Below the pieces are notes generated by a model. The model saw only the letters and a list, made by a program, of their open reading frames with translations. It searched no databases and was not told the DNA's origin. Below are positions 1 to 34,700 of a stretch of 34,700 bases of DNA, in pieces (the first letter of the stretch is position 1; each line of letters begins with the position of its first letter). The position numbers and the translations under genes are program-made. Origin of the DNA: a virus (lineage: Duplodnaviria; Caudoviricetes); the IMG/VR virus record IMGVR_UViG_3300022666_000343, positions 1-34,700 of that record, one strand, 5' to 3'.

Positions 1-966
1 ATGAAATCACCGATTCAAACGGTAGCCCTGGACTTCGGGGCAGGGAATTTTAAGATGTTCGGCCCTGATGGAGGCGTCGTTATCCCTTCGCACGTGGCAG
101 CGTTCTCCGGCGATCAAATCGGAGAAGTGGCGGGAGTTCGCAGCGTGGCCGGATCCACCCGGATCTCGATAAACGGGTATCGGTTTTACGTTGGCCGCAA
201 TGCTCACGCCTTCGGCCGGCCCGTCGAAAACCTCGACGACGGACGGTTCGCGGCCGGGACACCGGAATTACGGGCGCTCACCTACTCCGCGCTCTCCAGC
301 CTCACCCAGTCCCAAATCAACATCATCGTAGGACTGCCCCAGACCACCCTGGCCGGGGCTCAGGCCAGGACAACGACGGAAGGGCTGCGGGACTGGCTGA
401 CGGGAACGCACACCTGGACGGTCAATGATACCGAACGCGCCATCGACGTGCAAAAGGTGACGATCTCCAGCCAGGCAGCCGGCGGGATGTTCGATTACCT
501 GCTCGACCAGGACGGAAAGTTTCTCCCCGAACGGAAGGCCCGGTTCCGGGAAGAGATCGGGGTAATCTCGATCGGGATGAATACCATCGAATTCCTGGTA
601 GTAAATGGGGGGGAATCGGTGGGGCGCTTCTCCGGGAGCGTTACAGCCGGCGTGCGGAGGCTACTGGAACTGGTCGATCCCCGGGGAATGTACTCCAGGG
701 GCGAACTCGACACCATGCTCCAGGCAAAAAAGCTCGACGTGAAGCCCGCGCTTCCCATCTGGGGGGCAGAGGTGGCCGGGCATGTCGAACGGATCTGGGG
801 GCGCGACCACCGTCGCTTCGCCGCCATTGTGATCGTGGGAGGAGGCGCCGTTCTTCTTCGTGAGGAGCTCGTCAAACTTTTCAACGGCAAGAGCTTCTTC
901 CCCGACGACCCGATCCTGGCCGTCTCCCGCGGGCTCTTCAAACTGGCCTTGATGAAGGGGAAGTAA
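1..966 (+). CDS. parM: ParM/StbA-family actin-like plasmid partition ATPase
   Basis: 321 aa. N-terminal actin phosphate-1 motif (VALDFGAGNFK), IIVGLP, phosphate-2 region (GVISIGMNT) and adenosine motif (IVIVGGGA). Followed directly by a small adaptor-like gene. Confidence 0.85.
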   Translation: MKSPIQTVALDFGAGNFKMFGPDGGVVIPSHVAAFSGDQIGEVAGVRSVAGSTRISINGYRFYVGRNAHAFGRPVENLDDGRFAAGTPELRALTYSALSSLTQSQINIIVGLPQTTLAGAQARTTTEGLRDWLTGTHTWTVNDTERAIDVQKVTISSQAAGGMFDYLLDQDGKFLPERKARFREEIGVISIGMNTIEFLVVNGGESVGRFSGSVTAGVRRLLELVDPRGMYSRGELDTMLQAKKLDVKPALPIWGAEVAGHVERIWGRDHRRFAAIVIVGGGAVLLREELVKLFNGKSFFPDDPILAVSRGLFKLALMKGK

Positions 967-968
967 AA

Positions 969-1187
969 ATGGGTCGCCCGCGCCGCGCATCCAACATCGT
1001 CGTCCACCAGGTCAAGCTTTGGCTCGTTCCTGGGCAGGATGATGATCTCATCGAATTTTTTGCGGGGCTTACCGAGGGCGGCAAAGCGGCAGCGGTCAAG
1101 TCGGCCATGCGGTCGGGAAATATCGCCAGCTACGAAAACTCCGAAGATGACGATATGGAGGCCCTGTTAGATCAGTTCGTTTTGTGA
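969..1187 (+). CDS. Putative ParR-like (ribbon-helix-helix) partition adaptor
   Basis: 72 aa, starts 2 nt after the parM stop. Beta-strand/helix/helix pattern (HQVKLWL..DDDLIEFF..KAAAVKSAMR) and an acidic C-terminal tail. Position matches type II par operons. Confidence 0.55.
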   Translation: MGRPRRASNIVVHQVKLWLVPGQDDDLIEFFAGLTEGGKAAAVKSAMRSGNIASYENSEDDDMEALLDQFVL

Positions 1188-1224
1188 TGCACTAAACCCA
1201 GCGCGGGTTTAGTGCATCACAAAA
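1180..1224. repeat. Perfect 20-bp inverted repeat with 5-nt spacer
   Basis: TTTTGTGATGCACTAAACCC-AGCGC-GGGTTTAGTGCATCACAAAA, overlapping the stop codon of the ParR-like gene. Confidence 0.95.
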
Positions 1225-1254
1225 AAAAGCGGCTCTCCTGCCGGGGAGGGCCGC
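1221..1254 (-). terminator. Intrinsic terminator on the minus strand
   Basis: Minus strand reads GCGGCCCTCC-CCGGCA-GGAGAGCCGC followed by T8. Confidence 0.7.
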
Positions 1255-1312: not shown

Positions 1313-2821
1313 ATGAAAGAGCGGACCACTCAGCAGGTGGCATTATACCTTGCCGGAGGTTTGCTTGTGGCCGGTATCGTGATCGGGCTGCTGGTGGCCG
1401 TTGCGATCGGCGGCGGGGCGCGCTGGCTGGACTCCGACCAGCGTGCCCTGGGCCTGGAGCGCGATCAGGCGCTGCAGGGGCTGCGCGTGGCCACCACCGC
1501 AGTCACCGAGTCGGCCCTGGCCGGGGGTCTGGTGGGGAGCATCATAATCGGGTTGTTTTGGCTGGAGCGGCGCTCCCGCCAGGTCTATGCAGCCGGCGGA
1601 TTGTTTCCGCTCCTCCGGCTCCGGCCGGGCGAAACGCTGTACGATCCCAACCGCGCCGCCGGCGCCATCCTCCGCATCACCGCCGACGGGCACATCGTGG
1701 AATCTCTGGCGTCTCCGTGGTCGGTAGCCGGGGCCCTGGAAGTGCAGAAAGCCGCCGCGCTGGCCACCAGCGGATCAGAACTCCGCATAGACGCCCCGGC
1801 CTTCCGGGACCAGGCCGACCAGGCACTGCCGGCGGCGGAGCCGATTGTAGATCTTCCGGGAATTCCATCCCTGGTAAATCTTCCCGATCTTTTCATCGGA
1901 AAAAATCCAAGCCTGGAAAGCCTGGTTATTGGGGTTGGGAATTCCGGGCCAGTTTCGCTCCCCCTACATGATCTAATGCATATGCTGGCTGTGGGGGCCA
2001 GCGGGTGGGGGAAGTCTACCTGGCTGCGCAGCTTGATCTGGCAACTGGCCCAGGTGCCTGAACCGGTTGAGGTTATGGCCATTGATATCTCAGGATCGGA
2101 ATTCAATATCCTCCACCAGTGGGATCGCTTGCGGTACCCGGTAGCCCGGACAACAGATGAGGCCGAAGGATTACTGGACCAAATCAGAAACGAGATCGGG
2201 CGGCGAAAGGCCCTTTGGGAAAAAGTTCCCCTGGCCAGCAGCCTCCCAGAGTACAACGAATTGACCGGTGAAAAACTTGCCCCCTGGATCTGCTTTGCCG
2301 ATGAGCTCACAAACTTGATGAACCAGGGCGGCGTCATCCGCCCTTTCCGTGAAACGGTCCAAACTGCCCGCCAGTATGGGCTTTTCATGGTCGTTTCCGG
2401 GCAGTCGGTCGTTTCGTCGGTCATCGACACGCAAACCCGCGGTCAGTTTTCCACCCGGCTTTGCTTTCATGCCGAGCCGAGCTCTAGCCGGGTCGTCGTC
2501 GATGATCGATCTGCAGCGCGGATCGGAATAAAGGGCCGGGCCATCGCGCAACTGTTCGGAATGCCCCGCATGGAAATTCAGGGTCCCTACGTTTCCAAAT
2601 CCGATCTGGCAATGGTTCTTTCAGACGGAGGCCCACGTCGCCCGGCTCCGACCCCGGCCCCCACTCCTGCCCCGGTCATAGACGAAACCGCCCGGCGGGT
2701 CTGGGCAATGCACAATGCAGGATCCTCAGACACGGCCATTGCCCGGGCTGTGTTCGGATATGGAAATTCGCACTACATAGATCGAGTGCGAGACATCTTA
2801 CAACAACAACACAACGGCTGA
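1313..2821 (+). CDS. Membrane-anchored FtsK/SpoIIIE-family ATPase (TraB/TcpA-like DNA translocase) with C-terminal HTH
   Basis: 502 aa. Two N-terminal hydrophobic segments, Walker A GASGWGKS, Walker B ICFADE, ARQYGLFMVVSGQ motif, PAPTPAPTPAP linker and a C-terminal HTH-like segment (SDTAIARAVFG). RBS GGAGG. Confidence 0.85.
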   Translation: MKERTTQQVALYLAGGLLVAGIVIGLLVAVAIGGGARWLDSDQRALGLERDQALQGLRVATTAVTESALAGGLVGSIIIGLFWLERRSRQVYAAGGLFPLLRLRPGETLYDPNRAAGAILRITADGHIVESLASPWSVAGALEVQKAAALATSGSELRIDAPAFRDQADQALPAAEPIVDLPGIPSLVNLPDLFIGKNPSLESLVIGVGNSGPVSLPLHDLMHMLAVGASGWGKSTWLRSLIWQLAQVPEPVEVMAIDISGSEFNILHQWDRLRYPVARTTDEAEGLLDQIRNEIGRRKALWEKVPLASSLPEYNELTGEKLAPWICFADELTNLMNQGGVIRPFRETVQTARQYGLFMVVSGQSVVSSVIDTQTRGQFSTRLCFHAEPSSSRVVVDDRSAARIGIKGRAIAQLFGMPRMEIQGPYVSKSDLAMVLSDGGPRRPAPTPAPTPAPVIDETARRVWAMHNAGSSDTAIARAVFGYGNSHYIDRVRDILQQQHNG

Positions 2822-2864
2822 GTGTTGTAGGGTTGTTGTTGTTGTCTTTGTTGTGTTGTTGTAA
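2798..2864. repeat. CAA/GTT-rich imperfect inverted repeat cluster
   Basis: TTACAACAACAACACAAC (2798-2815) is complementary to both GTTGTTGTTGTTGT (2832-2845) and GTTGTGTTGTTGTAA (2850-2864). Confidence 0.85.
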
Positions 2865-2877
2865 CGAAAGGAGCAGG

Positions 2878-3003
2878 ATGAATGCAGGAGCGACGTTTAT
2901 GCTTTTGATTATCTCGATGGGGATCTACTTCATCATCGACGCCTGGACATCTCCCCCTCCACCGCCACCGCCTCCACCCACCATCAACGTGAAATTGGTC
3001 TGA
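2878..3003 (+). CDS. Small (41 aa) single-pass membrane protein with a 9-proline tract; absent from the ORF track
   Basis: RBS AAAGGAG at 2867-2873. Translates to MNAGATFMLLIISMGIYFIIDAWTSPPPPPPPPPTINVKLV and fills the ftsK-rep gap. Confidence 0.65.
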   Translation: MNAGATFMLLIISMGIYFIIDAWTSPPPPPPPPPTINVKLV

Positions 3004-3025: not shown

Positions 3026-4045
3026 ATGAATAGCACAATGGTCTCGATAGATCCCCGACAACTTTGGAACCAGGCCCTGGGCGAATTAGAGTTACAAATG
3101 ACCCGGGCAACCTTTGACACCTGGCTGCGAAACACCCAGGGGATTGATATATCGGACGGGAAATTGCACGTCGCAGTTTTGAATACCTATGCGGTGGAAT
3201 GGCTGAACAACCGGCTGGCCTCCGTCGTGGCCAGGACTGTAAACCGGCTGGCCGGGCAAGAGATCCCCATTGAATATATCGTCCAGGAACCAGGCGCGCC
3301 GGCGATCGCCGCTGCAAAGCCCACCACAGCCCCTTCACAGCCCACGCCAGAGCAACCTGACGACACTGCCGAAACGCTGCGCCGGCTGCTGGAGCAGATC
3401 ACCGACCCGGCCGCCCGGGAGGTAATCGAGGGACAGATCGCCAGGCTGGCCGGAGGAGCTGGCGCAGCGCCGGAGCAGCCCACATACTCGTGGATCCAGA
3501 AATATGGCGGCATCGACCCGAAGACCTGGGGATACACCCAGGTCGCCAACTACGCCTACAAATTCTGGCAGCCCGTGATGAACCGCCAGATCCGCGCCAC
3601 CTTCTCTGTCTACCTGGTCGTCAGATCGGCCTACAAATCCGCCGACGGAGAGTGGACAACGCCGAAACTCTGGGCGATCGAAGAGCTTGCCCGGGCGGCC
3701 GGATGTGGACGCCAGTCCATCACCGGAGTCAGCCGGCGCTGCGCAGAAGACGCCCAGGGCGCCGTGCTGGTCCATCCGGAGGATCTGGACGGGAACCAGG
3801 CCGAAAAAGCAGTATGGATGGCCTACCGGCCTGGGGCGCTGGATGTGCTACATGACTACGGGCTGGCCACCGTCGATATCCGGGGCAGCGGCCGCCACAC
3901 CACCTACTGGATCTCGGTTAAAGTCTCGCTCCCACTGCTCTCTCCCGGCCAAGCGGCAACGTTGCCGGCATCACTCCAGGCGGAGCACTCCAAGTTCCTG
4001 GAGGAGCATGATATCCCGGCTGAGGATTGGAAAATGGTTGTGTAA
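3026..4045 (+). CDS. Replication initiator: N-terminal DnaA domain I fused to a winged-HTH-like domain
   Basis: Residues ~9-86 match DnaA_N (LWNQALGELELQMTRATFDTWL...NTYAVEWLNNRL). C-terminal HTH/wing (IEELARAAGCGRQSI...ALDVLHDYGLATV). No AAA+ domain. An iteron array begins at its stop codon. Confidence 0.75.
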   Translation: MNSTMVSIDPRQLWNQALGELELQMTRATFDTWLRNTQGIDISDGKLHVAVLNTYAVEWLNNRLASVVARTVNRLAGQEIPIEYIVQEPGAPAIAAAKPTTAPSQPTPEQPDDTAETLRRLLEQITDPAAREVIEGQIARLAGGAGAAPEQPTYSWIQKYGGIDPKTWGYTQVANYAYKFWQPVMNRQIRATFSVYLVVRSAYKSADGEWTTPKLWAIEELARAAGCGRQSITGVSRRCAEDAQGAVLVHPEDLDGNQAEKAVWMAYRPGALDVLHDYGLATVDIRGSGRHTTYWISVKVSLPLLSPGQAATLPASLQAEHSKFLEEHDIPAEDWKMVV

Positions 4046-4120
4046 AAGCACAACCATTGTTATGCAAATACATAACCAGCGTTGTGTAAATGCATAACTC
4101 CGGTTGTGTAAATACACAAC
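4037..4120. repeat. Four 18-bp quasi-palindromic iterons at exact 22-bp period (putative origin)
   Basis: GTTGTGTAAAAGCACAAC (4037), GTTATGCAAATACATAAC (4059), GTTGTGTAAATGCATAAC (4081), GTTGTGTAAATACACAAC (4103). Confidence 0.9.
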
Positions 4121-4128
4121 CAAAACAT

Positions 4129-4150
4129 AACCGGCCCGGCCGGTTTTTTT
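4129..4150 (+). terminator. Intrinsic terminator after rep, inside the origin region
   Basis: AACCGGCC-C-GGCCGGTT running into a T7 tract. Confidence 0.65.
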
Positions 4151-4227
4151 AATCGGAACGTTAAGTGTGTACTCTGCAACGCAAAACACAACGGGCTTAT
4201 GTATTCTGCACCACAATACACAAGGGC

Positions 4228-4266
4228 CTTGTGTATTTACACAACACGGTTGTGTAAATACACCGA
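4228..4266. repeat. Two further iteron copies preceding an AT-rich tract
   Basis: CTTGTGTATTTACACAAC (4228-4245, inverted orientation) and GTTGTGTAAATACACCGA (4249-4266). An AT-rich stretch follows at about 4280-4345. Confidence 0.8.
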
Positions 4267-8914: not shown

Positions 8915-11443
8915 TTAGACATAGTATCCCCACAACTGCAAATAAACCCCGGTGGCATTGGCGCCACCGATTACAACCTCGAAATCCCCGTTGGAGTCCA
9001 CCGGTACAACCGCCGTCATTTCAACGTACCCGGAAAGATACGATTTTACAATGGCTGTGAACTCCGTCGCTCCATTTGGACGTAAACCGGCGTAATATCC
9101 GGTATTTGTTGCGCCCCAATTGGCCGCCAGCCGGATTAAAATTGCCTTGACCCCGACCGGAAGACTCCAGGGGCTGGCCGAAGTGTCAATGTCGTAGGTC
9201 CCGATATTTTTCGCGTCGCTATCCCAATCGGTAGACGTTTTTGGCGTGGTGAGCGGGACAAAGATATACCCTGTTCTCAATGCCCCATCCTGCATTTTCC
9301 TCAGGTCGCCCTCATATTCAACATTGTTGTCGCCGGGTATAGTTCCTGTTCCACCAACATACAAACCCCGTCCTACTCGTAGATCGTGCGACGTAGAAAC
9401 ATAGGTTGCCGCGTTCAATTCTATGGCTCGTTTAACTGAGGAACTGAGAATGTTAATGCGCGCCTCTACAGAATTTTCAACAGCGACCAGCTCGACTGTA
9501 CTGGCCCGCCCGGTATATCCAGTCGCGGTCATCGAGATCCGGGTGTCGTGCGCGTTCGCTGAGGCCGCCGTTGCGAACAGTCCATTCTCCGATGCCGTCA
9601 ACACGGAATAAAGCTGGCCGTAGGTGGTTCCACCGGTGGAGAATTTTAAAGCCCGAGAGGCTGCATACGTCGTACTGGGAACGATGGTGGCTCCATCGAC
9701 ATCTAAAATCACGACTCCAGCGCCGGCGTATAGTTTCCCGTCCGTCGCGTCTATTTTTACCTGATAGACGTTTGACAGTAGCGAGTAAAACCCGGTCCGG
9801 TCCATCCAGAAACCGGTGCCGGAGGCGCTCGCCGTCGGCGGAGTCGCGCCGATCGCCAGCGCGCTCCCAGTTCCGGGCAACCGCAATTTGCCGAGGATAT
9901 CGGCATTACCGGCCTGGTCCAATTGGATGACCGTGGTAGCCCCAGAAAGTAAGCGCAATCCGTTGGTCGGGTCCCAGGTCATCGACCCTTTTCCCGTCGC
10001 ATACTCTCCGAACGCGGCCCCATATGTAGGCGCGGCATATCCCCAGTTCCCGTTCAGATCCCCGAGTCTCATCAACTCGGTCTTTGTATTGTAAGTGGCC
10101 CCCTGGGTCCAAATGTTGATCCTGGGTGTATCGTAGGCGTTCGCCTCGATCCACCCGTCACCAGCCACACCGATCACCCAGAACGGCGCGCCGGCGGGCC
10201 AATCGTTGGCCCCCGACCCGTCGAGGTTCCTGGTCACGTTGTACGTGGTCCCACTGACCAGGCTAAGGACTTTTACATACTCGACCTGCCCCAACCCGCG
10301 AAAAACCACAAAGCTGTTCAACGCGACGGCCTTCCCGAAATTGATGGTGGTCGCAGCCGCAGCCAGCGCCGCCGGCAAAACGCCCTCATCTTTGCCCACG
10401 ATGAGCCACCCGCCCAGGAGCGTTACCGTATTAGCCGCGAACAAAACCGTGTCGAACTCCGAAGCGTAGACTTTTCTCCATAGTAAAGACGCGCTGCCCA
10501 GATCATAGGTATCCGTCGCCATCGGATAATGATGCCCCGTTTTTAGCAACCCGGCGTTGCTCATGCTGGCCAGTAGGCTGGCCCCGTTGTACCACTCAGT
10601 GATGGTGGCAGCCGTGCCGTTGATCTTGAGCGGGAGCACGTCGGGGTCAACTGACTCCAGGTGCAACAGGTCCGTTGCACCTGGGTTACCAGTGTGCTGG
10701 TGAATATGCACCAGGTCCCCCACGAATGCGCCGGTGGCTTCTATCTCAAAGGCTCCATCATACGTGGGGGCTCCACTGGGGTTTGTATAGCTGAAGGCCA
10801 GCGATTTATTCGCCATATTGAACGTTTTACTCGCCGCCGGCGCTGCTATCTCATCCAGCGAAATTCCAGTGATCGTTCCGTTGAACGTCACCGCACCGTT
10901 GAAAACATGGTCGCCTGACCATGTGGGGCTGATGCTCACATCCAGCGCGTGCCGATGATCCTCACGCGCCGATTTCGTGGCCACGCCGACGGCGGCCGCG
11001 GTCAGGCTCACCGACAACGGCGATGCAGCTGCAAAATCTACCGCCAGGGTCCGGTCGGCCGTGAGCAATCCGCCGCCGGTGAGGCCGGAGCCGGCCAGGA
11101 TCGACCGGTTGAGACGTTCCGCCATGTAGGCGCTGCGCGTTCCGGCGCCGTCGGCGCTGGCATAGATCGTATGCGAGTCGGCCAGCAGGTGGGCGTCATA
11201 GGTCGATTTAAACGCCGACACATCGACGCCATCGATCGTTACGCCATCCACTACCGTCAAATTTCCAGTCAGCGATCGAGACCCATCCCGCAGCAGGAAC
11301 TGCGGGGCCTGATCGTCGGCCAGCTGGCCTGTGTGCAATGGTCCATTTAGCGCGTGCGCCGCGTCGCTGGATTCCGTAATTGCCTGCCGCTGCCAGCCAA
11401 TCACATATGGCTTTATTGCCTGAAGAATTTCTTCAACTGTCAT
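8915..11443 (-). CDS. Tail fibre / receptor-binding minor tail protein
   Basis: 842 aa from MTVEEIL (ATGA overlap with the upstream gene). G/T/A/S-rich, fibre motifs (AGSGLTGGG, REDHRH, YDLGSASLLWRKVYA). Last large gene of the tail cluster. Confidence 0.75.
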   Translation of the reverse strand: MTVEEILQAIKPYVIGWQRQAITESSDAAHALNGPLHTGQLADDQAPQFLLRDGSRSLTGNLTVVDGVTIDGVDVSAFKSTYDAHLLADSHTIYASADGAGTRSAYMAERLNRSILAGSGLTGGGLLTADRTLAVDFAAASPLSVSLTAAAVGVATKSAREDHRHALDVSISPTWSGDHVFNGAVTFNGTITGISLDEIAAPAASKTFNMANKSLAFSYTNPSGAPTYDGAFEIEATGAFVGDLVHIHQHTGNPGATDLLHLESVDPDVLPLKINGTAATITEWYNGASLLASMSNAGLLKTGHHYPMATDTYDLGSASLLWRKVYASEFDTVLFAANTVTLLGGWLIVGKDEGVLPAALAAAATTINFGKAVALNSFVVFRGLGQVEYVKVLSLVSGTTYNVTRNLDGSGANDWPAGAPFWVIGVAGDGWIEANAYDTPRINIWTQGATYNTKTELMRLGDLNGNWGYAAPTYGAAFGEYATGKGSMTWDPTNGLRLLSGATTVIQLDQAGNADILGKLRLPGTGSALAIGATPPTASASGTGFWMDRTGFYSLLSNVYQVKIDATDGKLYAGAGVVILDVDGATIVPSTTYAASRALKFSTGGTTYGQLYSVLTASENGLFATAASANAHDTRISMTATGYTGRASTVELVAVENSVEARINILSSSVKRAIELNAATYVSTSHDLRVGRGLYVGGTGTIPGDNNVEYEGDLRKMQDGALRTGYIFVPLTTPKTSTDWDSDAKNIGTYDIDTSASPWSLPVGVKAILIRLAANWGATNTGYYAGLRPNGATEFTAIVKSYLSGYVEMTAVVPVDSNGDFEVVIGGANATGVYLQLWGYYV

Positions 11444-22917: not shown

Positions 22918-22926
22918 AGGTCTCCT

Positions 22927-23694: not shown

Positions 23695-24956
23695 TGCTCT
23701 TCCTCCTTTCGTTCAGTTCGTTCAGTCGCCGATTTCACAACCGTCTGGAGCCTTCCGTCTGGAAGGACTACGGCCATATTCGCAGGGACATAATGACTAT
23801 CCCCACCGGGGAACGACGGGTTGTCTTCAATCGCCCGGGCTTCATTGATGGTCATCAGGCCGGATAAAACCTTCTTCGAGAGATATTCGCCCCGCGTTTT
23901 AGAATCCGTCCGCATCAGAGCGTCACGATTGAAGCGCCAGTAATACGAGGATTGCTCTTCCAACGTCAGCCAGTGCAGCTGTGCGGCCTGCTCCCAAGCC
24001 ACCAGATAAGGGTCGAGAGTAGTGGCCAGATAATCCAGGGCCTGCTGCTCATTGCTGGAATAACTCTGTTTGCCCATGTTCAGCTTGTACAAGGGCAAAC
24101 CGAAGAAATTTGCAATATCGAGATCCGTAGCCTCGATGGACTGAAGGAACTGGGCATCGACGGGACTGATCTGAACGGCCTTGTAGTCTTCGACCTTGTT
24201 ATCCAGGATGGCCAGCCGGTAAGCGTTCGCGCTTCCACTCATCGAAGACTCATACTCCTCTCGGATCTTTTGACGAGACTCCGGCGACAAGGCCCCGTTA
24301 AATTTCATGATCGCCGCCGGCATTAACCCTTGCGAGTACAGCATATCCTGAGTTTCTCCGGCCCCCTGCCGCCTCCCCAAGGTATCCCGCGCAAAGGCGA
24401 TCACGCTGCGCCCCAGGAAACCATCCTCCGAGTTGATCATCAGGTGCAGAACCTCAACTGACGGCAGTTCCTCGGTTTGTCCGTTAGAGAACGTTGTCCG
24501 ATACCACAATTGCCCATCCTCGGCGATATAGGGCAGGGTCGCATTGGCGGCCAGGAGGAATAACTCCCGCTGCCGGCCTGGAGGCATCCATATGTAAGCG
24601 TTCCCCCAGTAAAGCAACCACATCACCGCCGTTTTTTTTAGGTAGAAGGCGGTCTGGTAGCGGTTGGGCTGGATCTCCACCACATAGGCCATATTCCTGT
24701 TCCGTCCATCCGGGCGGATGCGTTGAATATTCCCATCTCCCCGGGCCAGGAACAGCTGCAACGGAAGCTTTGCAATATCGTCGCTCAACACCGCCCCACA
24801 TCGGTAAGCTGTAGCAATCCGTTTCACGCTGTCAGGTGTTATAGATTGCCCGGATCCGGCCGTCAATGAATATCCACCCCCGACCAGTTCAGGGCGGGTC
24901 CAGGTCGGCGTGACCAGATTTGTTCTAAGAGCCCTTTTCAGCCGACTGATCAGCAT
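23691..24956 (-). CDS. Portal protein, HK97 family
   Basis: Start MLISRL (RBS GGAGG). IAKLPL, QPNRYQT, LLYWGNAY, DAQFLQ and GLMTINEARAIE motifs. Confidence 0.93.
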   Translation of the reverse strand: MLISRLKRALRTNLVTPTWTRPELVGGGYSLTAGSGQSITPDSVKRIATAYRCGAVLSDDIAKLPLQLFLARGDGNIQRIRPDGRNRNMAYVVEIQPNRYQTAFYLKKTAVMWLLYWGNAYIWMPPGRQRELFLLAANATLPYIAEDGQLWYRTTFSNGQTEELPSVEVLHLMINSEDGFLGRSVIAFARDTLGRRQGAGETQDMLYSQGLMPAAIMKFNGALSPESRQKIREEYESSMSGSANAYRLAILDNKVEDYKAVQISPVDAQFLQSIEATDLDIANFFGLPLYKLNMGKQSYSSNEQQALDYLATTLDPYLVAWEQAAQLHWLTLEEQSSYYWRFNRDALMRTDSKTRGEYLSKKVLSGLMTINEARAIEDNPSFPGGDSHYVPANMAVVLPDGRLQTVVKSATERTERKEEEH

Positions 24957-25119
24957 CGTTTCCTCCATCGTTCCCCAACCCAACGGCAACGCCTCCCACA
25001 ATCAGAAGGCCCCCTGCCATAAAAATGCCGGCGATCGGATGACACAAATAGGCGCCATACGTGATCAGGCCGGCGCCGGCCAGGATCATCAGATCATCCA
25101 AATAACGGAAAATTTTCAT
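24925..25119 (-). CDS. Small two-TM membrane protein between terL and portal
   Basis: MKIFRYLDDLMILAGAGLITYGAYL...; a common feature of HK97-type head modules. Confidence 0.65.
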   Translation of the reverse strand: MKIFRYLDDLMILAGAGLITYGAYLCHPIAGIFMAGGLLIVGGVAVGLGNDGGNDADQSAEKGS

Positions 25120-26693
25120 CACATCCCCCATTGCCCGGTCCGGATCAGTTCGTCGAGATCCACCGTGCCCTCGTAAAAGATTGCCCGGGCCTCAGCAATT
25201 ACCATAGCGGCAGTAAAATCAATCCGTTTCGTTGTAATGGTCCCGCGTCCCTTTGTTTCCTTGACGTACTTCTTCAAACCGGACCCATTGACAGCGATAG
25301 ATGTATTACCAAAGCACCAACGGGCAGTAAGGTTATCTTGGTGCGTCATTGTGCCGGCTTTCAATTCGACCTCAATCTGATTCATCGCGTTGGTCAGGCC
25401 CACCATGGTTTGGGGAACATGAACGCAAACCAACTGATAATCCTTTTCCAGTTCCTGGAGCAACATGGCCGCAAAAGCCCGATCCGCGTCGATTTCCTTC
25501 ACTTTGTAAAGTGCACACCACAATAAAATCGTTTGCTTAACGATGGTGTAATCGACCACAGTTCCAGGAGTGGCGATGATATATCCCTTCTCTACCCATT
25601 GATCGTAGGGAACGTGATCTTTTTCAATCCGCTCACGCATGTTCTCTTCGGGAATGAAGCCTAACCAGATAACCCGCCAATCCAGTTGCGCTCCCTGAGG
25701 AGGAAAAATAGCCGATATCGCTGTCAGATCGGTAGTGCTGGAAAGGTCCAAACCGATGTAGCACTCCTTCCCCAGCAGGCTTTCCATATCCCAATCGCCC
25801 ACAGTATTGTCAAAAAGTTCCAGGGGTAACCACCCCGTTAGTTTTGTTGAAACCCACTGGTTCAACACCAGCCAACGGAATAATTTTTCATTGGCTGCAT
25901 TCTGCTGAGCCTTGTGAGCTAATTTACGAATTGCATCAATCTTGATGGTGTGTCCCAGCGAGGGATTGGCTTTATACCAGTTCTCCTCGTTGTAGATGTC
26001 ATCTCCGTCATATGCAAAAATGACGACATACCAGGTAGGATCGATAATGTCTCCCGAAGCAACGCGCATGGCATAGTCATGCAATTCCCATGCAATAGAA
26101 TTTCTGTCCGGATCATCGCCGGCGGTCGTAATGACCCATACGATGGGCTGGTCGCGCGCCGATCCAGACCCAAAGGTCATCACGTCCCACAAATGCCTAT
26201 CCGGTTGGGTATGAATCTCGTCGAAAATAATGGCCGACGGATTCAAGCCATGCTTGGTCGGGACATCTGAACTGAGCGCCATGTAATAGGAGTCGCCGGC
26301 ATAAATAGTGTTCTCTGAAGCAACAATTCGGCTACGTCGGCTCAAGGCTTTGCATTTTTGAGTCATTACCTTGGCGCCTTTGAAAACTATCTTGGCCTGA
26401 TCCTTATCTCCAGCGCAACCGTAAACTTCGGCCGATGGTTCCCCATCGGCATGTAAGTGGTAAAGAGCAATCCCGGAAGCGAGGGTACTTTTCCCGTTCT
26501 TTTTGGGCAGTTCAATCCAAACGTATTGATATTGTCGGAACCCATCTTCATCAACCGTGCCATAAACATCCCAAAGCGTATCTCTCTGCCACTTTAACAA
26601 GGTGAAAGGCTTGTCTTTATGTCGTCCGGACGGCGGCACCAACGCCTCAAAAAACGTGATGACATTCTGGGCTTTGCTTTCATCGAACGGCAT
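25119..26693 (-). CDS. terL: Terminase large subunit
   Basis: LLKWQ, Walker A PKKNGKS, Walker B IIFDEIH, ITTAG, nuclease GLDLSSTTDL and KRIDFTAA. Start MPFDES; alternative upstream start at 26756. Confidence 0.95.
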   Translation of the reverse strand: MPFDESKAQNVITFFEALVPPSGRHKDKPFTLLKWQRDTLWDVYGTVDEDGFRQYQYVWIELPKKNGKSTLASGIALYHLHADGEPSAEVYGCAGDKDQAKIVFKGAKVMTQKCKALSRRSRIVASENTIYAGDSYYMALSSDVPTKHGLNPSAIIFDEIHTQPDRHLWDVMTFGSGSARDQPIVWVITTAGDDPDRNSIAWELHDYAMRVASGDIIDPTWYVVIFAYDGDDIYNEENWYKANPSLGHTIKIDAIRKLAHKAQQNAANEKLFRWLVLNQWVSTKLTGWLPLELFDNTVGDWDMESLLGKECYIGLDLSSTTDLTAISAIFPPQGAQLDWRVIWLGFIPEENMRERIEKDHVPYDQWVEKGYIIATPGTVVDYTIVKQTILLWCALYKVKEIDADRAFAAMLLQELEKDYQLVCVHVPQTMVGLTNAMNQIEVELKAGTMTHQDNLTARWCFGNTSIAVNGSGLKKYVKETKGRGTITTKRIDFTAAMVIAEARAIFYEGTVDLDELIRTGQWGM

Positions 26694-26752
26694 ATAATCC
26701 CTCACCGTTAAAAGAAAAACAAAGATAAAAATCATCCCGTAAAGGACTCGTT

Positions 26753-27334
26753 TCATTCTTCATTCCTCGAAACTCTATTCAGCAAGGCTTCCATCGGATC
26801 TACTGTCTTATTCTTGGATGTTTTATCCTTTTCCTCAGGAGCAGTGCCGGCCCGTGCTCGTGGTGTCATGTAAAGTGATTGCCGCAGGAGCAGCAGAAAT
26901 TTCCGTTTTGAATCGCAACGGGCGTCGATAACTCGTAGTTGGTTTTGTGCCTTCAGAAGTTTCGAGAAAATATCTGCCCGCAGCTCCACATCGCAATCAT
27001 CAGGGAGTTCCTTGAACGTCTTATCCATCGTGCGCCAGGCCGAGTGAGCCGCCGATCTCATATCGTCCAAATCTGCCAGTTGCGACATTGCCAGGCAGTA
27101 ATCGACCATCAAATCAAAGTCCAGCGCCGTGACAATCTCCGCCTTCACGCTGGAAAACAAACGCCTTAATCGGCGCCAATGGGAGGAGGCCACCGGATCT
27201 GAAGAAATAGACGCAGGGGCTTTTACCGGTAAATCGCGAGTCGGCGTCAACGCCTCTTCGGCCTGCTCCCGTCGGGCGATTTCCTCTTTTGTTTCATGCC
27301 GTACTACTAAATCAGACGGCTTTTTAGCTGGCAT
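26753..27334 (-). CDS. terS: Terminase small subunit (P27-like)
   Basis: Start MPAKKP. WRRL..., DYC and LYMTPRAR motifs; directly upstream of terL. Confidence 0.8.
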   Translation of the reverse strand: MPAKKPSDLVVRHETKEEIARREQAEEALTPTRDLPVKAPASISSDPVASSHWRRLRRLFSSVKAEIVTALDFDLMVDYCLAMSQLADLDDMRSAAHSAWRTMDKTFKELPDDCDVELRADIFSKLLKAQNQLRVIDARCDSKRKFLLLLRQSLYMTPRARAGTAPEEKDKTSKNKTVDPMEALLNRVSRNEE

Positions 27335-27425
27335 TGCAAAAATCTCCACATTGGGAAAAAATCTCGCGTTCGTCCCCGCTTGCGCTCGACAATCCCCCAC
27401 CAAAACTTTCCGAGGGGGTTATCCC
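27335..27425 (-). other. Probable cos/packaging-initiation region
   Basis: Interval between HNH and terS, where cos lies in HK97-like phages. The exact cohesive end is not identifiable. Confidence 0.4.
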
Positions 27426-27766
27426 TGCCTTACCTCTTCTCTTGTGCGCCGCGAGTGGCACTCGTGGCACAAAGAAAGCAACGGGCTCGATACAAACAGG
27501 GCAGGGTCCCCGCGGTGCCGCACCTGGTGGTGCACGTCGGTCGCCGCGACGTAAAGACCCTTCGCCAAACAATCGGCGCACCATGGATTAGCCTCAAGAT
27601 GAGCCTTCCGACGCTTCTGCCACGATCGTCCGTAGAGCCGGTGCTTGATCTTGTCTTCCCGCGTCTGTCTCGTCTGGCGCTGCGATGCGGCCGCTGCGTG
27701 CTTTGCGCAGTAGCCACGTTCTACTAAGGCTGAGCAGCCTGGTGACGAGCAAGGCTTAAGAGGCAT
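27419..27766 (-). CDS. Terminase-associated HNH endonuclease (HK97 gp74-like)
   Basis: PCSSPGC...YCAKH, NPWCADC, DVHH and LCHECHSRRT motifs. Confidence 0.92.
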   Translation of the reverse strand: MPLKPCSSPGCSALVERGYCAKHAAAASQRQTRQTREDKIKHRLYGRSWQKRRKAHLEANPWCADCLAKGLYVAATDVHHQVRHRGDPALFVSSPLLSLCHECHSRRTREEVRQG

Positions 27767-28871: not shown

Positions 28872-28984
28872 GATCCACCCGCCTGTTCCAAACCGGATAT
28901 AACGGCCAACAGTAGCAACGTCCAGATGACGATCAACACAAAGTCAAACAGGTCGGGATCTGTTGGCCAACGTTCAGCGCTCAT
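28865..28984 (-). CDS. Small single-TM protein
   Basis: MSAERWPTDPDLFDFVLIVIWTLLLLAVISGLEQAGGSW; ATGA overlap with the upstream gene. Confidence 0.5.
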   Translation of the reverse strand: MSAERWPTDPDLFDFVLIVIWTLLLLAVISGLEQAGGSW

Positions 28985-29346
28985 GATCCAAACATCACCC
29001 GCGCCTGCCCCGTGACCACAGCCCAAAGTAATCCAACGATGAGGGCCCCCACAACGGTGGCGACCCACTTTAGGCTGTCGATGGCCGGCTTGATCTCGGG
29101 AATTGTTTTCTCAAGGGCTACGACCCGTTTGTCCAACCCGTCAACTTTACCTTTGAGGTCGGATTGCATCCATTCATCCCGCAGGGTTTCCAGGCGGGCT
29201 CGCTGTTCTGCGTTGGCAGTATCGATGCGAGAAATCCAGGCCGTGAGATCCTCCCGGAGTCCCTTAACGGACTCATTGAGCAGCGCGATCTGCGTGCTCA
29301 CGCTCACTTCCTGGTCTGGTACTGAACGGCTGGTCTGCGGAGTCAT
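28981..29346 (-). CDS. Coiled-coil protein with C-terminal TM (XhlA-like/holin-like lysis protein)
   Basis: Heptad region (VDGLDKRVVALEK) followed by LKWVATVVGALIVGLLWAVV. Confidence 0.6.
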   Translation of the reverse strand: MTPQTSRSVPDQEVSVSTQIALLNESVKGLREDLTAWISRIDTANAEQRARLETLRDEWMQSDLKGKVDGLDKRVVALEKTIPEIKPAIDSLKWVATVVGALIVGLLWAVVTGQARVMFGS

Positions 29347-29840
29347 TTTTTGTCGCCCTGGGGAATGATAACCTGGGGAGGAGTGACAACCGGACGCGCC
29401 ATGACGCGCTGCAGCTGCTTTGCAGCCAGCTGCTGAGGTTTAATGATCGCGTGGTAGGTGGCCGTTCCGAAACCACATGCTATCAGGCCGCCGGCGATCG
29501 GCGCCCAGTAGGCTTCAATGACGGGCCAGGCGTCCGCCGGAATGAACTGCATAAGCAGCCGCGCAATGACAGGAACGCCGATAATCAACACAGGAAAGAC
29601 GATGCCTTTGATATCCGACGGCAACCGCTGGAACCAGGCCTGTTTTTCCGCCAGAAATGCCGCGACGACGCCACCGCCGGCAGCCGTGCCCAACAACAGG
29701 ATGAGATCCCGCAGCCCCGGAAGGCCCACCGGTGCGGACCCGTCACCGGCCGGAGGCTCTCCCTGAGCCATCACCCCACCTACCAAAACCAACGTCATCA
29801 AAACAACCAGCCCGGCAACTGCAAAACTCTTCGCCTTCAT
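29343..29840 (-). CDS. Multi-pass membrane protein, putative holin, with signal-peptide-like N-terminus
   Basis: Start MKAKSF. N-terminal hydrophobic segment ending VMA/Q plus three further TM-like segments. Confidence 0.55.
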   Translation of the reverse strand: MKAKSFAVAGLVVLMTLVLVGGVMAQGEPPAGDGSAPVGLPGLRDLILLLGTAAGGGVVAAFLAEKQAWFQRLPSDIKGIVFPVLIIGVPVIARLLMQFIPADAWPVIEAYWAPIAGGLIACGFGTATYHAIIKPQQLAAKQLQRVMARPVVTPPQVIIPQGDKK

Positions 29841-29862
29841 CGAAAACCCCCTTGATTGAAAT

Positions 29863-29902
29863 AAAAAAAAACCGGGGCCACGTTTACGAACGTGGTCCCG
29901 GT
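29863..29902 (-). terminator. Strong intrinsic terminator at the head of the late operon
   Basis: Minus strand ACCGGGACCACGTT-CGTA-AACGTGGCCCCGGT running into T9. Confidence 0.85.
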
Positions 29903-29925
29903 ACTTAAAGCCGCTGACGAACCGC

Positions 29926-30126
29926 TTACGGGTATGCCTGCCGGCGCCCTGGGGGTCCGGCCCGGCACCGCGCCTTCGGTGGGAGCTTGCGGTCATACTC
30001 GCGGCGGATACGAACTAATTCACCATCCTGGATCACCAACACGACTTCTCCAAAGCCGCCGCTCTCTTCGCAGACGGCGTTAAAATCCCGTTCTATTTCT
30101 TGAATTGCTTCTTGTGTTAGCGCCAT
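29926..30126 (-). CDS. Small DUF2292/YezD-like protein
   Basis: GFGEVVLVIQDGELVRI motif; first gene of the leftward late unit. Confidence 0.6.
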   Translation of the reverse strand: MALTQEAIQEIERDFNAVCEESGGFGEVVLVIQDGELVRIRREYDRKLPPKARCRAGPPGRRQAYP

Positions 30127-31110: not shown

Positions 31111-31317
31111 ATGGCTTGGACCACTAAACAGCTGGCCGAAGCCGCCCGGGTGACGAGCATCTATGTTCGTCAAGAAATACGAGCCGGAAACATTAAGTGT
31201 GAGAAAATAGGACGGGATTGGTTGATTGATGACGAGGAAGCTCAGCGTTGGTTGTCAGAACATCGGTTTACTCGTCGAGATTACGTCCAAAAGATCTCAG
31301 ATGAATCTGGTAAGTGA
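31111..31317 (+). CDS. Excisionase-like HTH (HTH_17/MerR-like) DNA-binding protein
   Basis: WTTKQLAEAARVTSIYVRQEIRAGNIKCEKIGRDWLI; RBS AGGAGG. Confidence 0.85.
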   Translation: MAWTTKQLAEAARVTSIYVRQEIRAGNIKCEKIGRDWLIDDEEAQRWLSEHRFTRRDYVQKISDESGK

Positions 31318-31517
31318 GGGCGCCTAAAAAGCGTTTGGGGAACGTCGTACTCACAAAGCAAAACGTTCCCCGCCCGTGTGGAACCTTAACAATTGAATAT
31401 CTGATTATAACATAATTGAGACACTCAATTGTCTCGGCCTGTTTAGCGTTACACCTACATCTTGCAGGATGAAGGGGTAACGTCGGACACTATCCTTGTA
31501 AATTGATGGCAACGAAG

Positions 31518-31591
31518 TGGGCGGTATAGGGCTCGAACCTACGACCTCCTCTGTGTAAGAGAGGCGCTCTAACCGACTGAGCTAACCGCCC
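31518..31591 (-). tRNA. tRNA-Val (anticodon TAC), CCA not encoded
   Basis: Cloverleaf on the minus strand: acceptor GGGCGGT/ACCGCCC, D arm GCTC/GAGC, anticodon arm CCTCT-CTTACAC-AGAGG, T loop TTCGAGC. Confidence 0.96.
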
Positions 31592-31659: not shown

Positions 31660-31905
31660 TTAAGCTACCAAAGGCCGGCCCTCCCCACCGCTGTTATCCT
31701 GGGCCGGCTTGGCGGCGGCATGTCGCCCTTCGGCCCGGTCCACAAACACGCCCATCCGTTGCACATGTTCGGCGCACACATAGACCACGCCCCCTACCCG
31801 CTCATACTTCGGCAGGATCGTCGTCCCTGGAATGCGATCCGTCAATTGCAGAATCAAGGTTACGGCGTGCCGTGCCGGCTTCCCGCAGTAAATACACTTT
31901 TTCAT
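31660..31905 (-). CDS. Small CxxC...CxxH zinc-finger protein (paralogue B)
   Basis: CIYC...VCAEH; ATGA-coupled to the upstream gene. Confidence 0.75.
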   Translation of the reverse strand: MKKCIYCGKPARHAVTLILQLTDRIPGTTILPKYERVGGVVYVCAEHVQRMGVFVDRAEGRHAAAKPAQDNSGGEGRPLVA

Positions 31906-32297
31906 GTTGTTCGCTCCTCGATAGATACCACGGTCAACACCGTGGCTTCAACCAGGCTCCCCCATAACCGGCCCTGCACCAACACGCGATTCCCCTTCAC
32001 GATCTGGGCCACGCGTCCGGCCGGCCCGTGCACAGTGACCAGCGGCGCCCCTACCTCCGTCTGGATGTCGATCAACCGCTGATTCAAATCCATCGCTACC
32101 ACCACGCCCCACAAAGTGACCAGGCTCCCTTGAGGCTCCCGGCCCGCCGGGACCACCACCAACACCCGCAGATCGGCCTCTCGAAAAGCCAGGATGTGCA
32201 GATCCCGCTTCAAGGCCGGCAGCGGCGCATTCACGTCGCCGCCGGCCAGGGCTATGATCTGCCTGATGATCTTCTCGGTGGGTTTCCCCGCCGTCAT
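31902..32297 (-). CDS. Hypothetical protein with OB-fold-like C-terminal domain
   Basis: LWGVVVAMD...IVKGNRVLVQGRL...VEATVL pattern; ATGA-coupled to the recombinase. Confidence 0.55.
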   Translation of the reverse strand: MTAGKPTEKIIRQIIALAGGDVNAPLPALKRDLHILAFREADLRVLVVVPAGREPQGSLVTLWGVVVAMDLNQRLIDIQTEVGAPLVTVHGPAGRVAQIVKGNRVLVQGRLWGSLVEATVLTVVSIEERTT

Positions 32298-33163
32298 CTC
32301 AAGAGACGCCCCACAGGTGAAATGCGCGCCTGTACTTCGCGCACATCCTCCGGGGTCGTATTGACGTACCGCATGGTCGTGGATATTCGACTATGGCCCA
32401 TCACGGTTTTCAAGGTCACTAAGTCGCCGCCGTTCCGCATCCAATTATGCCCAAAGGTATGCCGGAAAAGCTGCGGACCAACGTTCCGCTTGACCTGGGC
32501 CTGCCGGCCACAGCGTTTCACCAACTGCCGCAGTCCCGACGTGGTAAACTGATCCGTGCCGATGCCCGGAAAGGCCCAGGTGCCGTGGATATGATCCGCT
32601 TCCCAGTAGTTCACAATCGCCTGAACCACCAGCGGTTCCAACGGCACGCACCGCTCTTCCTGATCCTTGCCCAACACCCGGATATGCAACTCACTGAGGT
32701 CCACTTTCTCCCGCGGCAAGCTGACCAGCTCGCCGGCCCGGATCCCCGATCCCAGCAACAGCGTGAGGACGGCATAGCTTTTCTCCCCCTGGTCCAGGGT
32801 CTTGGAGGCCGCCAACATCGCCTTCACTTCATGGTCCTTCAAGAAATCCGGCAACCGCTTTTTCTGCGAAGGAGACTCCATCCCCTTCATCGGCGATTCG
32901 ATCCGATATTTCGTATTACACCAGTTGAAAAACGCGGACAGCGTGTTGTAATACGTAACAATCGACCCGGGCTTCGCGCCGTTTTTGCGCTTGTACTCCA
33001 GGTATTTCAAAATGTGCTCCTCTGAAAGATCCTCAATGTGGGGGTTGTTTATCTGCGATGCGAACGCCAACACTGTCTCATAGTACCGTTCGATGGTCCG
33101 TGGTGATCTCCCCAACGTGGTTTTGGATTTCAGCAGAGCGCTTAACGCTTCACATAACCGCAT
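32294..33163 (-). CDS. XerC/D-like tyrosine recombinase
   Basis: 289 aa from MRLCEA (RBS AGGAG). SAM-like domain (SPRTIERY), GIRAGEL, VLGK, PQLFRHTF, MGHS and TTMRY motifs. No N-terminal arm-binding domain. Confidence 0.92.
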   Translation of the reverse strand: MRLCEALSALLKSKTTLGRSPRTIERYYETVLAFASQINNPHIEDLSEEHILKYLEYKRKNGAKPGSIVTYYNTLSAFFNWCNTKYRIESPMKGMESPSQKKRLPDFLKDHEVKAMLAASKTLDQGEKSYAVLTLLLGSGIRAGELVSLPREKVDLSELHIRVLGKDQEERCVPLEPLVVQAIVNYWEADHIHGTWAFPGIGTDQFTTSGLRQLVKRCGRQAQVKRNVGPQLFRHTFGHNWMRNGGDLVTLKTVMGHSRISTTMRYVNTTPEDVREVQARISPVGRLLR

Positions 33164-33482
33164 AATCGACTCCTGAGTTTCTAGTATGGTACAGATGTAA
33201 CAACTCAAACGGTACAGAAACAACTTTATTATTTTAAAAGATGAAATCTTAAAATCAATGCAGTTAACATCTTTGTAACTCTTTTGTTATGAAGTAGCAA
33301 CAAAAAGCATTATTTTTCAAACTAATTTCTAACTACTAAGCTTCTCACCTGCCTTTCAACAAAATCTCCATCGTAATCCTCGTCACCTCTTTAAAGGATT
33401 GTCGTTATTATATTACCCAAAGACAAATACACAAACAGGAACACAGTTTCAGCGGGCAAGTCCCCGGCCTACTCTGCTTCCC

Positions 33483-34700
33483 TCATCGTTCACAATGAAT
33501 GAATGACCATTGCCAGTCCCCCTTGTCCATCGCTTCGATGCTGATGAGCCTGACCGCCCCTTTGAAGTGGGCCTTGTCCAGGATGCGTTGTTGCCGGCTC
33601 CGATCGCTTTCACTGACCAACACCAGCGCCAACGCCCCCATCAGCTCCAGCGACTTGAGCCACTTATCCAGCAGCCGTTCATTGACCTCTCGCTGTACCT
33701 CCACCGCCCACCGCCGGCCGTCGATAGTGGCCACCAGATCCGGTTCAGTGCGGATGCCCTGGGGATTATCCCCCTTGAGCACTGGGGCCGGCTCCGCGTC
33801 CACTTCATAGCCCTGCGCCCGCAGGTGATCGCGGGTCTCCAGGATCGCTACCCCATGCAGGACGCTCTTGTGCTGCTTCGCCATGACCAGCAGCTCCGAC
33901 TCCACCGGCGGCCGGCCGTAGGCTTGCTCATACCACGCCCGCCCCTGCTTGGTCAACATGACCAGCCGGCGCGCTCCCCCCACCGTCGTCGACCAGGTGA
34001 TCGGCTCGTTGGTCTTGGTATCCTTGAAATCCTTGATCAGCTCATCGTCGATCAACGCCTTGAAGACATTGCGCACCGTGTTCTCGTTCCGGGTCAGGCC
34101 GTCGTCCATGAGCTGCTGGATGATGCGCCAGGAGCGCCCCGCCCCCTCGGAGCCCATGAGATGCAACACCGCCTGGCTGACACCGCCGGCCACCTGAATC
34201 TGCGTCCCGGGAATTTCCAAAGTGGTCGCCCCGGTGGGCTTCCGCGCCTCCGCCCGCCGGCCGGCCTGGATCTTCCGCTGTAACGCTTCGTTCTCCGCCG
34301 TGAGCCGCTCCAGCTCCGCCCGGCTGCCGGCCAGTTCCTCTTGCAAAGCCACGACCCTGGCCTGCAACGCCTGCACTTCGGCACGATCTACGGCCAGCGG
34401 CGGCACCGGCAACGGCACAACCGGCAAGTCCGGGCCCGGGCGCTCCGGTGGGTCTTCGTAATGCTCCACCAGCAGCGCCAGGACATCGCGCAGCCCCATA
34501 AAGACCGTCGGCCAGGCATAGGCTCTGGCCGACGGTTTATAGTGCTGGTGAATGGCGTGTACATAGTGGCTGGCAGTCCAGCGAAAATTCTCGATCCGCT
34601 CCGGCGGCCGGCGGCGGGAGTGGCCCCGCGCTACCAAACGATAGGCACGGGTCAATAACTGGGTAACCTCTTCAAGTTGAGCCGTGGTAATTTTATCCAT
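33483..34700 (-). CDS. Replication-relaxation (Replic_Relax)-like protein: coiled coil + wHTH + PD-(D/E)xK-type domain
   Basis: Coiled coil at about aa 105-150; wHTH with LTKQGR; HGVAILE...EPDLVA...WAVEVQR pattern. Confidence 0.6.
   Translation of the reverse strand: MDKITTAQLEEVTQLLTRAYRLVARGHSRRRPPERIENFRWTASHYVHAIHQHYKPSARAYAWPTVFMGLRDVLALLVEHYEDPPERPGPDLPVVPLPVPPLAVDRAEVQALQARVVALQEELAGSRAELERLTAENEALQRKIQAGRRAEARKPTGATTLEIPGTQIQVAGGVSQAVLHLMGSEGAGRSWRIIQQLMDDGLTRNENTVRNVFKALIDDELIKDFKDTKTNEPITWSTTVGGARRLVMLTKQGRAWYEQAYGRPPVESELLVMAKQHKSVLHGVAILETRDHLRAQGYEVDAEPAPVLKGDNPQGIRTEPDLVATIDGRRWAVEVQREVNERLLDKWLKSLELMGALALVLVSESDRSRQQRILDKAHFKGAVRLISIEAMDKGDWQWSFIHCER

Follow-up and report, generated by a model that had tools for sequence, protein, structure and literature searches.

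The 34,700-nucleotide stretch of viral DNA analysed here (Duplodnaviria; Caudoviricetes; IMG/VR record IMGVR_UViG_3300022666_000343, positions 1 to 34,700; hereafter referred to as the window) contains most of a 37.1-kb temperate siphovirus. Here we report that this element is a prophage integrated in its host chromosome at a tRNA-Val gene, and that its gene for a predicted membrane FtsK-type ATPase ends in two opposed arrays of short repeats. At the sequence level, this repeat cluster, which resembles the clt loci of Streptomyces plasmids, varies among related loci with the recognition helix of the helix-turn-helix (HTH) domain at the C terminus of the ATPase, and the inference of a TraB-like function gains support from this. 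On balance, and with moderate confidence, we read the element as an integrating siphovirus with a TraB-like, relaxase-free pump, which would load on the end of its own gene and move the excised circle across a membrane.

A prophage integrated at tRNA-Val

The window corresponds to positions 10,017 to 44,716 of contig C62 (G000:C62:10017-44716) in a 7.97-Mb genome of 136 contigs. C62 (44,899 bp) runs 10,016 bp past the left end of the window and 183 bp past its right end, and a circularity check of the whole contig revealed no prefix-suffix overlap or terminal repeat. The window ends are therefore cuts, and the near-complete circle proposed by the initial annotation, which had presented the stretch as a candidate conjugative phage-plasmid, does not hold. 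The right attachment (att) core (36 bp, 31516..31551) lies at the 3′ end of a tRNA-Val(TAC) gene (31517..31591, minus strand; ARAGORN and Rfam), the sole match in the Rfam scan and the integration target. An exact copy of the core is located at C62:4457-4492, 5.5 kb to the left of the window. This 36-bp repeat is by far the longest repeat between the two ends (the next is 14 bp), and 37,111 bp lie between the att copies.

Inside the att pair, the part to the left of the window encodes a CI-like HTH protein, a tyrosine integrase with the catalytic motifs R175/K210/H293/R296/H322/Y332 and a ParB-domain protein, and an excisionase-like HTH gene (31111..31317, plus strand; phrog_1840, E 7e-7) is present near the right att core. 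Past the left att copy, an NADH:flavin oxidoreductase gene and further non-phage genes form the host flank. The exact-match contig depth is 52.1 in the left flank, 54.1 and 50.6 in the prophage and 45.6 in the right flank (a rough measure from contigs only, taken from one run that contains the DNA and is possibly the source sample), revealing no distinct copy number for the element, and the assembled contigs of three runs break at the att core. Because of the att pair, its own integrase and repressor, the host genes beyond the left att copy and the flat depth, the 37.1-kb element is a prophage integrated in the host chromosome and not a free plasmid. The att pair, the host flank and the flat depth refute the phage-plasmid model for the sequenced state. 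With its integrase, repressor, att pair and complete head and non-contractile tail genes, the element is a temperate HK97-type siphovirus. The initial annotation had missed the tRNA-Val gene and the att site, and also a further tyrosine recombinase gene (32294-33223).

The host is probably an Anaerolineae bacterium, because the titled relatives of the FtsK protein are Anaerolineae. Many Anaerolineae are filamentous. Matching CRISPR spacers, proposed earlier as a way to assign the host, was unsuccessful: none of 74 spacers (crude finder) matched any of three prophages. The 5′ half of tRNA-Val(TAC) recurs as an exact 40-bp copy at L027:18774-18813 (C65:41773-41812), which suggests a second element targeting this half of the gene. 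A palindrome with 21-bp arms (30502-30544) lies beside a bacterial PH-domain gene (30540-30992) near the right att core, and is absent from a sister prophage in the same genome.

A predicted membrane FtsK-type ATPase with a C-terminal HTH

The ftsK gene (1313..2821, plus strand) encodes a 502-amino-acid (aa) protein consisting of a transmembrane region, an FtsK/SpoIIIE ATPase domain and an HTH domain, as identified by PF01580, a structural model and the family alignment, confirming the membrane FtsK ATPase with C-terminal HTH recognized in the initial annotation. The protein has two hydrophobic segments (residues 14-32 and 64-82), intact Walker A and Walker B motifs and a conserved R353. In the model, residues 458-501 form a three-helix HTH, with no β-wing at high predicted local distance difference test (pLDDT) values, and FtsK_gamma gave no match at E<=1. 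The motor fold aligns with that of FtsK with a Z score of 31.5 and a root-mean-square deviation of 2.4 over 266 residues. The family comprises 106 homologues at E<=4e-32, of which 101 have the Walker A motif, and its PHROG class is moron/host takeover. The HTH has no BLAST similarity to the winged-helix end of an FtsK encoded on contig C2, and no usable Atlas family was found for it. In some members (L032, L098, L099, L108, L114 and L128, among 12 of the 106), a multi-cysteine, zinc-finger-like tail replaces the HTH, and the arrays are gone.

Opposed repeat arrays at the ftsK end

A repeat scan revealed that two opposed arrays flank the ftsK stop codon: (CAA)n occupies 2800-2815 and (TTG)n occupies 2822-2862. 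Together, they constitute a candidate clt-like loading site (2800..2862). These arrays are the top-scoring windows of the 37.1-kb prophage by opposed-array score. Among the ftsK loci, scores of at least 5 were reached by 24 of 35 HTH-type ends, none of the 6 zinc-finger-type ends and 2 of 9 others, compared with 19 of 362 other gene ends. This count covers 50 distinct loci with a C terminus and downstream DNA; four duplicates, 13 loci without a C terminus or downstream DNA and one locus without a match were dropped beforehand, and L031, which is the same DNA as the prophage on contig C22, was excluded from all counts.

The class of the recognition helix predicts the repeated trimer at 30 of 33 loci (the best of 5,000 shuffles reached 22). 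The GN[SPT][HF]Y helix is found with AAC (9/9), xGGxA with TAC (10/13) and xNxR with GAC (11/11). The helix classes are scattered over the ATPase tree, with 11-12 changes on 31 rows (a quick tree, with four rows skipped and long branches flagged). In homologous proteins outside the DNA-locus set, poly-Gln/Asn tails follow seven of eight GNxHY helices and none of 43 others.

The genome contains 17 FtsK-like ends, of which four have opposed arrays and five have none. The remaining eight belong to a winged-helix mobile family and have one-directional 7-bp arrays of 4-12 copies. The two chromosomal-type FtsK ends are among the five array-less ones, with at most two copies. The winged-helix proteins constitute a second mobile FtsK family, with one-directional 7-8-bp arrays of up to 12 copies across the stop codon, nearer still to Streptomyces clt. 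Its members were found at C22:84-95 kb, C84, C21, C18, C38, C88, C30 and C2 (L025, L161 and L163), with relatives at L004, L015, L017 and L030. The C2 copy lies within a prophage with capsid, portal and terminase genes; a PF03237 search of the genome gave no match, although PHROG detects the terminase on C2. This prophage also carries three copies of a perfect 20-bp palindrome (C2:95672, 113274 and 138283), likely a repressor operator.

Partition-type genes and a likely replication origin

The first gene of the window (1..966, plus strand) encodes an actin-like (ParM/Alp-type) ATPase (PF17989, E 8e-16; PF21522; phrog_691), with weak sequence matches to Alp12 and the pCBH ParM. The nucleotide-motif signature of the actin fold serves as the yardstick for ParM: D11, G13, Q158, G192 and G280-282 are kept, and the phosphate-2 Asp is replaced by Ser (S190), likewise in the subfamily. 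The next gene (969..1187, plus strand) encodes a 72-aa protein with an acidic C-terminal tail. Gene order and conservation point to a ParR-like adaptor, with a putative ribbon-helix-helix (RHH) fold and putative DNA binding; its homologues stand beside or after actin-like genes on C22, C32, C65 and C79 and at other loci. Thus, of the parM/parR-like pair proposed earlier, the actin-like member is confirmed by its domain match, whereas the adaptor is recognizable by gene order and has no Pfam or NCBIfam match.

A perfect palindrome with 20-bp arms (1180..1224), which is not among the listed terminators, is a candidate adaptor-binding (centromere-like) site. Of 20 actin-like genes, 9 (several of them closely related) have a palindrome with arms of at least 19 bp in the ~450 bp that follow, compared with 8 of 400 random windows. 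In ParMRC systems, the parC repeats stand upstream of parM. Here, by contrast, only 29 bp separate the upstream open reading frame (ORF) from the actin gene, and the candidate site is the downstream palindrome. The whole genome contains 14 actin-like gene copies and 17 FtsK-like frames, some of which may stem from another strain, because its contamination is given as 5.5%.

Downstream of ftsK, a 41-aa ORF (2878..3003, plus strand), whose product has a single hydrophobic segment and also a proline run, is kept in the sister prophage and may encode a spread-type accessory protein. It is followed by the gene for a replication initiator with a DnaA N-terminal domain (3026..4045, plus strand; PF11638), and then by 22-bp-spaced iteron-like repeats and an AT-rich stretch (4035..4263), a likely origin. 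Four such repeats span 4035-4120, in agreement with the iteron replicon noted earlier, and repeats of 22 bp are likewise present after the homologous initiator of L043.

Related prophages and mobile elements

The sister prophage lies on C22 at tRNA-Val(CAC), where its att pair is 40 bp long, and also contains the actin-adaptor-ftsK block. It shares 37 of 48 tested genes, not including the initiator, which is swapped for an unrelated initiator-like gene. The initial annotation had treated the left arm, the virion module and the right end as a single element; the first two do belong together and co-occur in the sister prophage and in viral relatives, but the right end lies outside the att pair.

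Among 11 distinct loci from the viral collection (L032-L038 and L040-L043), which is selected for viruses, virion genes lie within 10 kb at eight, and integrase, actin-like and ParA genes were found at six, three and three, respectively, in a scan of 104 hand-chosen ORFs from 15 loci. At 10 longer genome and metagenome loci with incomplete flanks, the ORFs scanned, which in one part were 55 of 128 listed, include an actin-like gene at six, a recombinase at eight and a virion gene at none. Profile searches at E<=1e-40 gave matches in 18/401 and 17/401 genomes, many of them distant or chromosomal FtsKs, and no close FtsK homologue was found among sixty close relatives (best E 1e-20). Single-protein scans of viral contigs returned no locus for FtsK and one for the actin-like protein, and an alignment query was required.

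The genome also contains AICE-like elements (AICE, actinomycete integrative and conjugative element) at C32:47.6-81 kb, C65 and C79 (L023, L024, L027 and L028), with no virion gene among the ORFs scanned. They carry a recombinase, a CI-like gene, an actin-like gene with adaptor and a palindrome with 25-bp arms, and a primase-polymerase/D5 gene, together with genes for a 691-aa FtsK, a glycosyltransferase and an O-antigen ligase.

Late genes and the region beyond the right att core

The HK97-type late module (8915..27766, minus strand; Pfam and PHROG) runs without interruption and comprises HNH, terS, terL, portal, Clp protease, HK97-type capsid, head-tail connector, tail tube, chaperone, tape measure and distal tail genes; the intact siphovirus module described earlier, contiguous from terS to the tape measure gene, is thus borne out. 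Two membrane proteins with one and three hydrophobic segments (28981..29996, minus strand; weak phrog_1193) are putatively holin-like by position. Among 50 ORFs scanned with Pfam, PHROG and NCBIfam, no endolysin was recognized, and the holin-like genes lie in 28350-29996.

The region 31660-34700 is outside the prophage, because tRNA-Val and the 36-bp repeat pair bound the phage. It contains two small genes and an intact XerC/D-like tyrosine recombinase gene (31660..33223, minus strand; domain scans), and a gene for a 405-aa protein (33483..34700, minus strand) predicted by alignment and model to consist of a coiled coil, a winged helix and a PD-(D/E)xK-type nuclease. A winged helix with a PD-(D/E)xK nuclease is the architecture of Replic_Relax, and the initial annotation had described a relaxase-like gene here. 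This assignment failed: PF13814 (Replic_Relax) gave no match to the protein at E<=1, was absent from the best 25 of 63 families for its 18-member alignment, and matched elsewhere in the genome only on C45 and C13. The Atlas family comparison gave Replic_Relax as a lead only (score 0.87, rank 16, 24% of members). The alignment conserves H277, H282, P320, D321 and E334, and the model matched PadR/MarR-like and restriction-type domains in the PDB only at E>0.001. Homologues were found in the virion-less-looking integrative element on C32 (81%) and inside the third prophage, on C2 (40%), and none inside the sister prophage. By sequence, the 405-aa protein is a predicted mobile-element nuclease, separate from the 37.1-kb phage. 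A 200-bp non-coding leader (window 34684-34700 and beyond, C62:44700-44899; C65:42628-42827; C32:73401-73599) is 88-95% alike among its copies, terminates two contigs and stands before different genes, and has no Rfam match.

Comparison with known systems

Streptomyces TraB resembles FtsK/SpoIIIE and binds 8-bp clt repeats (PMC4447253). The clt of pWTY27, to which TraA binds, consists of the last 16 bp of traA and 159 bp and includes both direct and inverted repeats; in a Streptomyces transfer protein, helix 3 within the winged HTH has been cited as the specificity determinant (both PMC3583192, the latter citing earlier work). The present system resembles TraB/clt of pSVH1, pIJ101, pJV1 and pWTY27 in having a single FtsK/SpoIIIE protein with a predicted membrane anchor and a putative DNA-binding domain at its C terminus (PMC3583192, PMC4447253), short repeats at or across the gene end and no relaxase. 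It differs in that its carrier is a complete prophage of the tailed type, probably from a Chloroflexota bacterium, the HTH has three helices and no wing, and the repeats are 3-6-bp units in two opposed arrays rather than 7-9-bp direct repeats.

AICEs are defined by an integrase, a Rep and an FtsK-type Tra protein, the last being the transfer protein (PMC3218068). Our element likewise has an integrase, a Rep and an FtsK-type gene and is integrated at a tRNA gene; unlike AICEs, which have actinomycete hosts and are not prophages, it carries a full virion module, and its named relatives are Anaerolineae. A literature search of main texts, including few subscription papers, found no report of FtsK-bearing prophages or AICE-like elements of Anaerolineae/Chloroflexi.

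The Corynebacterium prophage CGP3 is integrated and encodes an actin-like protein and a small DNA-binding adaptor (AlpC/AlpA/alpS), a pair used after excision and proposed to guide the excised DNA to the membrane (PMC4446434). CGP3 is cryptic, and its binding repeats lie upstream of the operon in a gene order unlike that of ParM-ParR (PMC4446434). Here, by contrast, the actin gene precedes the adaptor gene, and the candidate site is a downstream palindrome, which is followed by the FtsK pump gene. The Bacillus temperate siphoviruses BtCS33, phi4I1, PfEFR-4 and BceA1 are also ~40 kb long, with an integrase and an FtsK-like gene (26-28% identity, in the ATPase only). The FtsK-like gene of BtCS33 encodes 388 aa, with an annotated replication initiation gene next to it, no array at its end and no partition gene within 10.5 kb. 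The Streptomyces plasmid-phage pZL12 is described as a theta-type plasmid whose prophage transfers through a tra gene (PMC3583192, citing earlier work), whereas our element is integrated. The Bacillus plasmid prophages B83 and IEBH have ParM and RHH genes (PMC8026635) and share with the present siphovirus an actin-like motor and a putative RHH adaptor; they replicate as plasmids, whereas here an att pair is present, and partition genes alone are no proof of a plasmid stage (PMC8026635). Compared with phage-plasmids of the P1/N15/B83 type, the element has partition genes, its own replicon and virion genes, and shows neither an extrachromosomal state nor a separate copy number. Partition genes in integrated and plasmid prophages are already known, as are the FtsK-like genes of temperate Bacillus phages and a Streptomyces plasmid-phage capable of transfer.

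Proposed mechanism and alternatives

Because its anatomy matches Streptomyces TraB/clt, a TraB-like pump is the most likely reading of the FtsK system. In this mechanism, the integrase and excisionase would release a 37,075-bp circle, which the DnaA_N initiator would replicate from the iterons. The actin-like protein and adaptor would bind the palindrome at 1180-1224 and bring the circles to the membrane or the septum, much as has been proposed for AlpC/AlpA of CGP3. The HTH would bind the CAA/TTG arrays, and two hexamers could load back to back, because the arrays face opposite ways. In such a two-motor model, the motors would drive uncut double-stranded DNA, as a loop, into the next filament cell or a touching cell without a relaxase, and the circle would re-integrate. 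The HTH and the arrays, which lie within ~150 bp, would be exchanged as a single specificity unit. More tentatively, and as a possibility that we rate below even, Anaerolineae tailed temperate phages may have acquired a TraB-like double-stranded DNA pump with an address code, in which a five-residue motif selects the repeat unit and the helix is exchanged together with its repeats as a cassette; two motors, loaded at the back-to-back arrays, would carry the excised circle across septa or from cell to cell with no virion involved. This system would be common to phages and virion-less elements, and elsewhere it is described only in actinomycetes in the literature covered.

Several observations weigh against transfer by a TraB-like pump. 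The fold does not decide function, since it matches FtsK, TcpA and EccC with Z scores of 31.5, 28.5 and 26.8 and no separation among them; the structural comparison proposed earlier thus yields an FtsK fold that is not distinguished from TcpA. The protein lacks a wing and scores 18.6 bits against the NCBIfam TraB family (NF041214), for which the cut-off is 800. The TraB-like inference of the initial annotation is therefore sustained by the clt-like array at the ftsK end but not by family membership: the 502-aa FtsK is outside the TraB family by sequence, but likely TraB-like in its working. Zinc-finger-type members, 12 of the 106 homologues, keep the ATPase without an HTH or array, and the actin-like gene is no fixed partner, being nearby in three of 11 viral relatives, with ParA instead in three. 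The helix classes were chosen post hoc, after inspection of the data, and tests on independent pairs involve only 2-5 pairs, none contrary and none significant. In a held-out test with the rule fixed beforehand, the strict rule was correct in four of seven new loci. In one of the misses, the top array was the expected 6-mer, and one more fitting locus was left unclassed by the script. Among GC-rich chromosomal FtsK ends, 3 of 14 score at least 5. Helix and array are adjacent, and therefore co-inheritance alone yields co-variation. Moreover, the 2800-2862 region folds as an RNA hairpin (z -2.4; other strand -3.2). We conclude from these sequence comparisons that the helix-array link is real but looser than 30/33, and that physical linkage could account for part of it.

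The main rival is positioning within one cell, which we consider rather unlikely. The pump would tether the excised DNA to the membrane to allow replication or assembly, or clear circles from the closing septum, and no new host would be reached. CGP3 provides the precedent, with AlpC/AlpA proposed to guide its excised DNA to the membrane (PMC4446434), and chromosomal FtsK is the best structural match; furthermore, early and replication genes surround ftsK, which often has a ParA, ParB or actin-like gene nearby, and opposed arrays would equally fit a convergence or tether point. However, the virion-less-looking elements of the genome, with a recombinase, primase-polymerase, actin-like gene, FtsK and array, fit the AICE recipe (PMC3218068), and an element-specific, swappable specificity suits selfish transfer.

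It is improbable, in our assessment, that the arrays are regulatory (an operator for the downstream replication genes or an RNA hairpin) or mere linked sequence, with FtsK as an accessory protein in, for example, exclusion or division control. The RNA folding on both strands directly upstream of the next genes, the modest held-out match, the PHROG class and the array-less FtsK of phage BtCS33 favour this view. However, a hairpin needs no short unit that tracks a protein helix, the one-directional arrays of the second FtsK family cannot form such hairpins, and arrays are missing at all six zinc-finger-type loci. An extrachromosomal conjugative phage-plasmid, sequenced as a near-full circle with ParMR segregation and a relaxase, is very improbable: partition-type genes and an iteron origin are present, Bacillus plasmid prophages with ParM and RHH are known (PMC8026635), and the FtsK-bearing C2 prophage encodes a homologue of the 405-aa nuclease, placed between its integrase/CI and its tail genes, but the att pair, the element's own integrase and repressor, the host flank, the missing terminal repeat and the flat depth oppose it, as do the position of the nuclease outside the att pair, its lack of a homologue within the sister prophage and its failure to match PF13814.

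Implications

If the arrays are not loading sites, what remains is an ordinary tRNA-integrated prophage that carries partition-type genes, with CGP3 as a precedent. The helix-repeat pairs constitute a natural specificity series, which is open to in vitro tests using a domain of 50 residues and without culture of the host. If the arrays do act as loading sites, FtsK-like genes long annotated in temperate phages would gain a testable role, and lysogeny would gain a virion-free route along the filament. TraB/clt-type transfer would then extend beyond actinomycetes to another phylum and into intact prophages.

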